Below, piece after piece: positions 60,142-61,647 of a stretch of DNA of 64,000 nt; the stretch's first letter is position 1, and every line of letters begins with the position of its first letter. The position numbers and the translations under genes were made by a program. The notes under the pieces are model-generated. The model saw only the letters and a program-made list of their open reading frames with translations. It did not search any database and was not told the origin of the DNA. This DNA comes from an uncultured Trueperaceae bacterium (GTDB taxonomy: Bacteria > Deinococcota > Deinococci > Deinococcales > Trueperaceae): positions 448,001 to 512,000 of the forward strand of contig CAWCXJ010000006.1 in the NCBI GenBank assembly GCA_963799485.1, given 5' to 3'.

Positions 60142-60154
60142 CCTTGTATGTTGA

Positions 60155-60292
60155 GGATGGGACACGGCACGGCAGAGCGTCGCCCCTTAGGTTCTAAAGA
60201 CCGTAAAAAAGCTAGTCTCGTCGTGCTGTTGTCTTCAGCCTAAGCCCGAACAGTTACCCGAGCAATAAGCTCGCATCTGCAAGGTTGGGCTA
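60155..60292 (+). ncRNA. Predicted bridge RNA (target-binding and donor-binding loops)
   Basis: Two internal-loop hairpins whose guide segments match the element ends and the flanking DNA. Confidence 0.75.
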
Positions 60293-60317
60293 CGCTGGAG
60301 CGTCTCACGGAGGTGAC

Positions 60318-61262
60318 ATGCTTAACGAAGTGTTGGTGGCTGGCGTAGACGTCGCCAAGTACCGTCTCGATATCGCGATCATACCAAGCGGTGAACGCCT
60401 TTCACACGCCAACACGCCAGACGGTATCGGCGAGTTGGTCAAGCTGCTGAGGCATCTACAGCCGAGCCGCATCGTTCTTGAGGCCACCGGCGGTTTGGAG
60501 CAGCCCTTGGTCATCGCCCTGGTTGAGGCAGCGCTACCTGTGGTGGTGGTCAACCCAAGACAGGTGCGTGATTTTGCTCGGGCCCTGGGCAAGCTGGCGA
60601 AAACCGACCGGATCGATGCTGTGGTACTCGCTGAGTTTGCAATCAAAGTCGCACCTGCTTTACGTAAGTTGCCTGATAGCGCCACACGTGCCTTGGACGC
60701 CCTGGTGACGCGGCGTAGTCAGCTGGTGCAGATGATAACCGCCGAGCGCAACCGCCTACACGCCTGCAACGACGACAGTGTGAAAGCCGATATTGATGAG
60801 CACCTGAAGTTCCTGGAAAAGCGTCGCCAGCACCTGGACGAGGCGTTGCTTGAAGCTGTCAAGGCTGATCCCTCGACCAAGGCACGTGACCATTTACTGC
60901 AGAGCGTGCCAGGCGTGGGTCCGCAGGTATCCCTGGTGTTGCTGGCGAACTTGCCGGAACTGGGTAGCCTCACGAGAAAGCAGATCGCTGCGTTGGTGGG
61001 CGTCGCACCTTTGAATCGCGATAGCGGTCTCTGGCGGGGCCGAAGGAGTGTGTGGGGCGGTCGGCGTGACGTGCGCACCGCCCTTTACCTGGCAGCGCTG
61101 TCGGCCTCACGTTACAACCCCCTGATCCGCCCACTCTATGAGCGCTTGCTGCTCAAGGGCAAGCCCAAAAAGGTAGCGTTGGTTGCCTGTGCCAGAAAGC
61201 TCCTATGTATCTTGAACGCGATGATCCGCTCCGGAAGCTCCTGGCGTCCAGCTGCTACTTGA
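60318..61262 (+). CDS. IS110 DEDD recombinase/transposase
   Basis: GVDVAK, LEATG, KTDRIDA, SVPGVG, RDSG catalytic Ser; RBS GGAGG. Confidence 0.95.
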
Positions 61263-61647
61263 CAAATGACACAGTTGCTTTTTTGGTAATTGCTATACTC
61301 GTCAGCACCATCAGGTCGGTCTTGCAGCCGGGAAAATAACCCTGACCATTCACGTGCCGGATTTGCGAAAGCGGAATAAACGCTGCCTGTCCTTGGGTCT
61401 GAGCCGCGTCCGTATAGCTCTCACGCCCGTGCAAGCATGGTCGGCTGCGGAAGCTGCTGCACACCTCCGGGTTGACTGCAACAATCTGTGTCGGCGAGGC
61501 CGTCGGGGACGGCAAAGACCGCGAGGAGCGGTAAAGATGCCGCGTCGCGCGAATATGTGGGTTTGGCGCTAGGCACGGCGTCCTCCAGCTCGGTAAAGCT
61601 TGGTCCCCTTCATTCTTGGTTTCCCTACCGACACGCTCGCCAATCCG

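Follow-up and report, generated by a model that had tools for sequence, protein, structure and literature searches.

The 64,000-nucleotide stretch analysed here (the window; positions 448,001 to 512,000 of contig CAWCXJ010000006.1, from an uncultured Trueperaceae bacterium) very probably carries an intact, autonomous insertion sequence of the IS110 group, equipped with its own bridge RNA and using the guide loops of that RNA to choose where it inserts. The element measures 1,135 bp from core to core (CT at 60143-44 to CT at 61278-79). Its anatomy, its copies, the protein family to which its recombinase belongs, the conserved structure of its RNA and the covariation between guides and flanks were observed directly in this analysis; coordinates are collected in Table 1. 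The original prediction, made from the letters of the window, had placed an intact IS110 bridge recombinase element between CT cores at 60142-43 and 61278-79. We found both cores, four copies and both protein domains, and every string that the prediction named is present at this place; the right core stands where it was placed, and the left core lies one base further on.

The element, its copies and its recombinase

A search of the element's own genome with 60100-61320 returned four full-length copies that are 100% identical (the window copy and those at loci L002, L003 and L004, here the second to fourth copies), together with a 160-nt match at 76% identity (L005) and a 33-nt match (L006). 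In the alignment of the four copies, identity starts inside a C run followed by TTGTATG and stops at a terminal ACAGTTGCT followed by TTTTT. We assigned the core as CT because the left ends of relatives read CT-TGTAT and their right ends gacagttg-CT, the latter terminus sitting 15 nt past the stop codon in most relatives. All four copies have CT at both ends and are inserted site-specifically. Four identical copies of 1,135 bp at different sites argue for recent movement. The left non-coding end is much longer than the right (173 nt versus 15 nt), as is usual for the IS110 group.

The single gene of the element encodes a protein of 314 residues and is preceded by GGAGG at 60309-13, five bases upstream of the ATG at 60318. 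The protein matches the Pfam families PF01548 (DEDD_Tnp_IS110; E 4.4e-26) and PF02371 (Transposase_20; E 7.2e-18), and it passes the cut-off of the NCBIfam equivalog NF033542, 'IS110 family RNA-guided transposase' (223.8 bits against 140). The best matches among solved structures are the IS621 transposase chain 8wt6 (E 2.6e-41, query residues 3-307) and the ISCro4 chain 9t56 (E 1.4e-40, residues 4-307). Residue D11, the glutamate of LEATG, the aspartate of KTDRI, D100 and the serine of NRDSG lie opposite residues 13, 62, 104, 107 and 243 of 8wt6, whose numbering is displaced from that of native IS621 by a constant +2 (consistent with a chain of 328 residues against 326 in the native protein). 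They thereby align with D11, E60, D102, D105 and S241, the catalytic residues named in the part of the IS621 structural report available to us (PMC11208158). Judged from this alignment the catalytic set, D-E-D-D plus Ser, is intact, in agreement with the original prediction. Relatives of the recombinase number at least 8,000 at E 1e-20 or better in a large protein collection; among the matches listed, the nearest distinct proteins are 88%, 73% and 71% identical and the others at most 65%, and those that carry names are called transposase or IS110 family transposase.

Bridge RNA structure

The minimum-energy fold of 60144-60320 yields two hairpins, each with an internal loop. The outer stem of the target-binding one pairs 60165-73 with 60220-28 and 60175-77 with 60217-19 (CGGCACGGC-A-GAG at 60165-60177 with CTC-GTCGTGCTG at 60217-60228) around an inner hairpin at 60190-60202; in the donor-binding stem-loop AGCCCGA (60243-49) pairs with TTGGGCT (60285-91) around an inner hairpin CGAGC/GCTCG at 60259-60273.

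We compared this structure with that of relatives from a scan of one genome per species, which found at least 531 protein relatives; the best 80 of these were kept (79 loci, 51-60% identity), mostly from Dehalococcoidia, Nitrospira, Gemmatimonadales and Methylomirabilota genomes. RNAalifold, applied to the 13 left ends that aligned cleanly, recovered the same helices, with compensatory changes in 13 of 31 pairs. From these 13 left ends we built a covariance model, R1, of four helices and 26 pairs with the loops left unpaired. With R1 as the query, 85 sources yielded 88 matches at E <= 0.01, almost every one of them immediately upstream of the open reading frame (ORF), and the window matched at 60160-60294 with 103.3 bits (E 7e-22), which is how the covariance modelling proposed as a check on the bridge RNA turned out.

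The alignment obtained in this way has 77 distinct rows. Pairs form in 96.0% of its cells, compared with 81.9% in shuffled alignments, both sides change in 23 of the 26 pairs, and none of 500 shuffles reaches the observed value on any of five measures. The outer stem of the target loop varies on both sides at 13 of its 13 pairs across relatives, with 96.8% of cells paired; helices 3 and 4, in the donor loop, have 91.5% and 96.4% of cells paired. When partners were slid by one to three columns the covariation score fell from 0.412 to 0.10 or below. These slid controls and the independent RNAalifold result argue that the covariation signal is real. The left end thus carries two stem-loops with internal loops, as in IS621, and the predicted pair of hairpins is borne out by the same structure, with compensatory change, in relatives.

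Target and donor guides

In IS621, according to the part of the published account consulted (PMC11208160), reading of the target falls to the first loop and that of the donor to the second. The 88 aligned rows provided 79 complete sets of guide columns, 75 of them with a placeable ORF stop; terminal motifs placed both ends in 57 rows, representing 55 distinct insertions, of which 51 lie outside the element's own genome and carry 46 distinct guide pairs.

Over the 55 insertions the right target guide matches right-flank positions +1 to +5 at frequencies of 0.96, 0.93, 0.96, 0.93 and 0.91, against 0.23-0.32 for mismatched pairings; positions +6 and +7 give no signal (0.15 and 0.31). Among the 51 outside insertions all five positions match in 39, four in 9, three in 1 and two in 2. 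The mean match of 4.67, compared with 1.59 after shuffling, was reached by none of 2,000 permutations. The left target guide tracks the left flank out to about -5: in the commoner register, positions -1 to -5 match at 0.89, 0.78, 0.69, 0.65 and 0.51 (0.74, 0.36, 0.27, 0.35 and 0.28 for other pairings), and position -7 at 0.33. With whichever of two registers matched better, 4.69 of 7 positions agree on average, compared with 2.87 after shuffling, and again none of 2,000 permutations reached this mean. From this family-wide covariation we identify 60205-11 as the right target guide and 60179-87 as the left, which upholds both assignments of the original prediction. The 5' side of the first loop corresponds to the left flank and core, and its 3' side is complementary to the core and right flank.

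The flanks of the other genomic copies, which had been suggested as a check, are related to the predicted guides: all four copies lie at CCC-CT-TTTTT, and the right flank matches at five of five positions in each, as expected from the proposed complementarity of AAAAAAG to CTTTTTT. The window site is imperfect, as had been claimed, with five of five matches on the right and three or four of seven on the left, where the core-proximal C run alone matches the guide. The left flank of the window copy reads GTCGT, five C and T, with two extra bases relative to the guide rather than the single one originally described. Its GTCG match is probably due to chance, being absent from the other three copies. 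The proposed target, about GTCGCCC-CT-TTTT, therefore holds in its core-proximal part and loses its distal GTCG, which is not seen in the natural sites; the target enforced would be about CCC-CT-TTTTT. The 3.66-Mb genome contains 11 further exact occurrences of the 10-mer CCCCTTTTTT, compared with 6 for a reversed control, and all 11 are unoccupied.

The donor, formed by the element's joined ends, is what the second loop matches. For the left donor guide, identity with the right end is 0.86-1.00 at each position across 56 rows. On the right side, 58 of 64 rows combine CAAG with CTTG, 4 combine TAAG with CTTA and 2 combine TAAG with CTTG, and the trailing G of this guide has a pairing partner, C at position -1 of the left flank, in 47 of 56 rows. 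In the window the donor match consists of six of seven bases plus one core base on the left, where the seventh base is A instead of G (a recurring mismatch, present in 5 of 56 rows), and of CAAG/CTTG plus one wobble on the right. Both donor guides had been predicted in this form, and both covary with the element ends.

The base at 60212, which directly follows the AG of that guide on the right target side, fits the position of the handshake guide, a concept introduced for IS621 (PMC11208158, in the part seen), and would pair with the last donor base. The two positions are paired in 54 of 56 rows (C-G in 51, and A-T, with both sides changed, in 3), with 2 exceptions; second handshake positions showed no pairing pattern in these 56 rows. 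With the target loop preceding the donor loop and each of the four guides backed by a family-wide test, the predicted IS621 bridge-RNA architecture is well supported.

Table 1. Features of the element and of its insertion sites, in window coordinates
Feature	Position	Strand	Sequence or detail	Basis
Left target flank, window copy	60133..60142	+	GGTCGTCCCC	Immediately 5' of core
Left CT core	60143..60144	+	CTT common to both junctions	Four-copy identity begins here
Left non-coding end	60145..60317	+	173 nt; encodes the predicted bridge RNA	Model R1 match
-10 half of putative promoter	60147..60152	+	TATGTT; promoter only in circle junction	Ends joined in script
Target-binding stem-loop	60165..60228	+		Minimum-energy fold, RNAalifold, family covariation
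Left target guide	60179-60187	+	GTCGCCCCT	Family-wide guide-flank test
Left target guide region	60179..60189	+	GTCGCCC-CT-TA; sense of left flank and core	55 insertions
Right target guide	60205..60211	+	AAAAAAG (AAAAA plus AG); complementary to CT-TTTTT	Family-wide test
Candidate handshake base	60212	+	C; partner is last donor base, G 61277	56-row pairing
Donor-binding stem-loop	60243..60291	+		Minimum-energy fold, RNAalifold, family covariation
Left donor guide	60250-60257	+	ACAGTTAC	Compared with right end
Left donor guide region	60250..60258	+	ACAGTTA-CC; right end ACAGTTG-CT	56-row comparison
Right donor guide, extended	60274..60284	+	CATCTGCAAG plus G	G at 60279 forms G-T wobble
Right donor guide	60278-60283	+	TGCAAG	CAAG complementary to CTTG of left end
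Recombinase gene	60318..61262	+	314 aa	ATG 60318, TGA 61260-62
-35 half of putative promoter	61259..61264	+	TTGACA; overlaps stop codon	Ends joined in script
Right non-coding end	61263..61277	+	15 nt; terminates ACAGTTG	Sequence; homology to relatives
Right CT core	61278..61279	+		Direct sequence reading and four-copy alignment
Right target flank	61280..61284	+	TTTTT	Same in all four copies
Decayed IS5-family transposase gene, 3' end	59976..60142	-	Interrupted by element	NCBIfam NF033580
Site, window copy			GGTCGTCCCC-CT-TTTTTG
Site, L002 copy			AATGAGCCCC-CT-TTTTTG
Site, L003 copy			GGGGTAGCCC-CT-TTTTTA
Site, L004 copy			CTTTTGACCC-CT-TTTTTA

Junction promoter and proposed mechanism

Circles of IS621 and other IS110 elements are reported, in the part of the account available, to reconstitute a promoter across their junction (PMC11208160). 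When the two ends of the present element were joined in a script, the junction read TTGACA, 17 nt, TATGTT (10 of 12 promoter positions). Of 49 distinct related junctions, 37 score at least 9 of 12, and 26 read TTGAC(A/T), 17 nt, TATCTT, which points to a circle-junction promoter of the IS621 type that is conserved in relatives. In the integrated state no promoter-like site was found on the + strand of 59900-61500. The core lies 17 nt from the target-loop stem here, a distance that includes the -10 box, versus 29-49 nt in most relatives; because the -10 box sits only a few bases ahead of that stem, the RNA is predicted to begin without the 5' stem-loop that IS621 and its consensus have, which is a difference between the two systems rather than an exclusion, the stem-loop being no guide.

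The mechanism that we propose is as follows. The element would excise as a circle, in which the joined right and left ends form the sigma-70-type promoter. This promoter would transcribe a bridge RNA of about 135-160 nt from near 60159 and then the recombinase mRNA. Of the two internal loops, the first would bind the target and the second would bind the junction of the element's own ends, ACAGTTG-CT-TGTATG, and the DEDD/Ser recombinase would exchange strands at the CT core. We infer the circle, its transcription, the binding of RNA by protein and the chemistry from IS621, and likewise infer that the loops could be reprogrammed.

Insertion context

The window copy interrupts a decayed IS5-family transposase gene. 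Its left flank encodes the C-terminal 51 residues of the IS5 transposase (positions 208-258 of 258 in NF033580, E 4.7e-14); the identification comes from NCBIfam, Pfam having given nothing significant on the IS5 pieces. With the element removed in a script, the IS5 frame continues into 61280-61515, a part that matched no family in Pfam or NCBIfam. The claim that the element lies inside an IS5 remnant is thus confirmed on the left, and on the right it reduces to a shared open frame. A search of the own genome for an unoccupied version of this site found none: the right flank is unique, and a 98% copy of the left flank spans no more than 151 bp and stops 38 bp short of the site.

The fourth copy, too, splits an IS5 transposase gene. 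The break falls between positions 111 and 115 of the profile, on an A-run with a G after it, exactly where the frame shifts from one IS5 half to the other (L004:1093-1506 and L004:2641-3066; around G000 C1:22190-24163). The second copy is intergenic, following a lumazine-synthase-like gene, and the third lies in an open frame with no family match. Seven other IS5 copies have four or five A (not six) at the homologous site and are all unoccupied; we rejected a general preference for IS5 frameshift sites, given that these seven near-cognate copies are empty.

Alternative explanations

Several observations weigh against an intact, RNA-guided element. The folding energy of the left end is not significant when compared with shuffled sequences (z = -1.11, with 29 of 200 shuffles at least equal to it), and because the energy of the single sequence is thus ordinary for its composition, the case for structure rests on the family comparison. 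In that comparison the pair counts were taken on an alignment fitted to the model, which favours structure, and the relatives are not mutually independent. Of the 79 rows with complete guides, 22 were dropped when terminal motifs failed to place both ends, with the consequence that atypical members are under-sampled. The left donor guide of the window departs from the right end in having A for G, and CC for the core CT. In the register of the original prediction the left flanks of the four own copies match the guide at 3, 4, 6 and 4 of 7 positions, the window copy being the poorest, and the C run leaves that register ambiguous by one base. No Rfam family was found above threshold, and no RNA run with the element's sequence was found that could supply transcript evidence. 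DNA contigs of four runs contained neither an empty site nor a circle junction; they break at the element ends (60140-61285 in run X1), and the one joint in run X5, from 59919 to 61300, has a short side of 21 letters at 90% likeness and is too weak to be relied on.

Three other explanations were set against this evidence. The element could be an inactive relic, intact-looking in sequence but with a bridge RNA or recombinase that no longer works, whether through the donor-guide mismatch or through the missing 5' stem-loop; the left donor guide does differ from the right end at the seventh base and in the core, the spacer of 17 nt is short beside the 29-49 nt of most relatives, and the eleven exact CCCCTTTTTT sites are still unoccupied. 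We consider this improbable, since the four copies, at different sites, do not differ anywhere in their 1,135 bp, the catalytic set is complete, the same guide mismatch occurs in other rows (5 of 56) and the short spacer is also found in other intact relatives. It is more improbable still, to the point of being remote, that the left-end hairpins are a cis-regulatory leader acting on translation or stability and that the protein alone reads the target. The pairing of RNA with DNA is predicted here from sequence, which leaves room for such a leader, but a leader would not be expected to covary with DNA outside the element, and the loops track the right flank at 0.91-0.96 (versus about 0.3) and the left flank as well, across 46 distinct guide pairs.

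Just as remote is the proposal that the shared CCCCTTTTTT flanks reflect a structural or compositional preference, for homopolymer junctions or for the frameshift sites of insertion sequences, to which the loop match is secondary. The placement of the fourth copy exactly between two frames of an IS5 transposase gene, at an A-run, and of the window copy likewise in an IS5 remnant would fit it. However, the two IS5 sites fall at different positions of the protein (profile 111-115 and about 205), the second copy is intergenic, the seven IS5 copies with shorter A-runs are empty, and relatives with other guides use quite different flanks. RNA-guided insertion by an intact element remains by far the best account. 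A more specific proposal is a good deal more tentative, and we would not ourselves bet on it: that the lineage is a naturally minimal bridge system, with a recombinase of 314 residues and an RNA of about 135 nt without a 5' stem-loop, in which roughly 10 bases are enforced (three or four on the left, the core, and five on the right), the right half dominates, and an A-run/G-run target permits landing in the IS5-type frameshift window.

Related loci and weak matches

The same genome holds a second bridge-RNA locus (L005:1480-1680 on the minus strand, equal to G000 C6:714982-715140), 76% identical to the first and matched by R1 at 100.4 bits. Its right guide, AAAAAAG, is unchanged and its left guide differs (GAAGACCCCAA), the site being GAGACCC-CT; no recombinase ORF was found downstream, and the ORFs on either side resemble transposases of other families. 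The locus has the appearance of a sister element's decayed left end. A truncated fifth insertion, L006:1501-1533 (G000 C12:16648-16680), consists of a 29-nt left-end stump behind GTGACCC-CT.

A variant of the element in contigs of run X5, from a rock metagenome, is about 95-97% identical and differs at three guide-loop bases: in the left target guide region T becomes C (window 60187) and A becomes G (60189), and the A-run of the right target guide has an A>G change (60207); these changes would predict a different target. In a Nitrospira locus two R1 matches lie on the same strand 1,220 nt apart (L050:1037-1174 and L050:2257-2391), an arrangement that indicates two tandem copies of a related element. 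Weaker R1 matches (21-29 bits) at L042:923-1047 (-), L036:912-1035 (-) and L007:2919-3156, adjacent to some of the relatives, have a different donor loop (GGATACAA ... GCAAGTG) and may be the left ends of another IS110 subgroup nested nearby.

The Rfam search returned only weak matches. The first, to the Xanthomonas small RNA (sRNA) sX15, is full-length but weak (26.4 bits against a gathering threshold of 55, E 0.11), covers 60151-60309 and lies on the minus strand, opposite to the bridge RNA. In the portion of the study by Schmidtke et al. that was available (PMC3300014), sX15 and asX7 are plasmid sRNAs complementary to each other, with 10 chromosomal homologues in Stenotrophomonas maltophilia K279a; the match suggests that the sX15/asX7 pair may mark the left end of an IS110-type element. 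The second, to the Pseudomonas sRNA P10 at 59799-59872 (-), reaches 21.5 bits against a gathering threshold of 37 and is probably noise.

Comparison with known systems

Durrant et al. 2024, in the part of their report consulted, count predicted RNA orthologues in the thousands and give 85.7% as the share of catalogued IS110 elements that have bridge RNAs (PMC11208160), and the present element is, as far as its sequence places it, a distinct lineage of this very large and already described family. It adds one well-annotated bridge recombinase whose guides, donor and target, together with a candidate handshake base and a predicted junction promoter, are located to the base. The element is compact, and its natural insertions provide a modest body of data on where along the guides matching is enforced, strictly in the right half and loosely in the distal left. 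The picture of how such elements work is unchanged, the family being already termed 'RNA-guided' in NCBIfam.

Among the known systems closest to it is IS621 of Escherichia coli, which, in what we have of its descriptions (Durrant et al. 2024, PMC11208160; Hiraizumi et al. 2024, PMC11208158; structure 8wt6), shares with the present element both protein domains, the five catalytic residues, the CT core, ends of unequal length (left long, right short), an RNA upstream of the gene with the target loop before the donor loop, a core contained within each guide, a discontinuous right donor guide, the handshake base and the junction promoter. The two differ in that the proteins are distant (phmmer, 145 bits over about 305 residues; 314 aa here versus 326), that the 17-nt spacer leaves no room for a 5' stem-loop and the RNA is predicted at about 135-160 nt rather than 177 nt, and that the target here is CCC-CT-TTTTT and not a REP element. 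ISCro4 (9t56), the second solved IS110 recombinase, is similar as well, by protein sequence match alone. Members of the IS1111 group share the recombinase family and the principle of RNA guidance (seekRNA or bridge RNA); they are described, in the same partial source, as carrying the RNA in a long right end with longer subterminal inverted repeats (PMC11208160), and we exclude the present element from that group because its left end is 173 nt and its right end 15 nt. Further relatives are the unnamed IS110 elements at loci L007-L085 from Dehalococcoidia, Nitrospira, Gemmatimonadales and Methylomirabilota, which have 51-60% protein identity, the R1 RNA, a CT-TGTAT left end, a gacagttg-CT right end and a junction promoter in common with it, and which differ from it in each having its own guide pair and target and, in most cases, 29-49 nt between the core and the target-loop stem.

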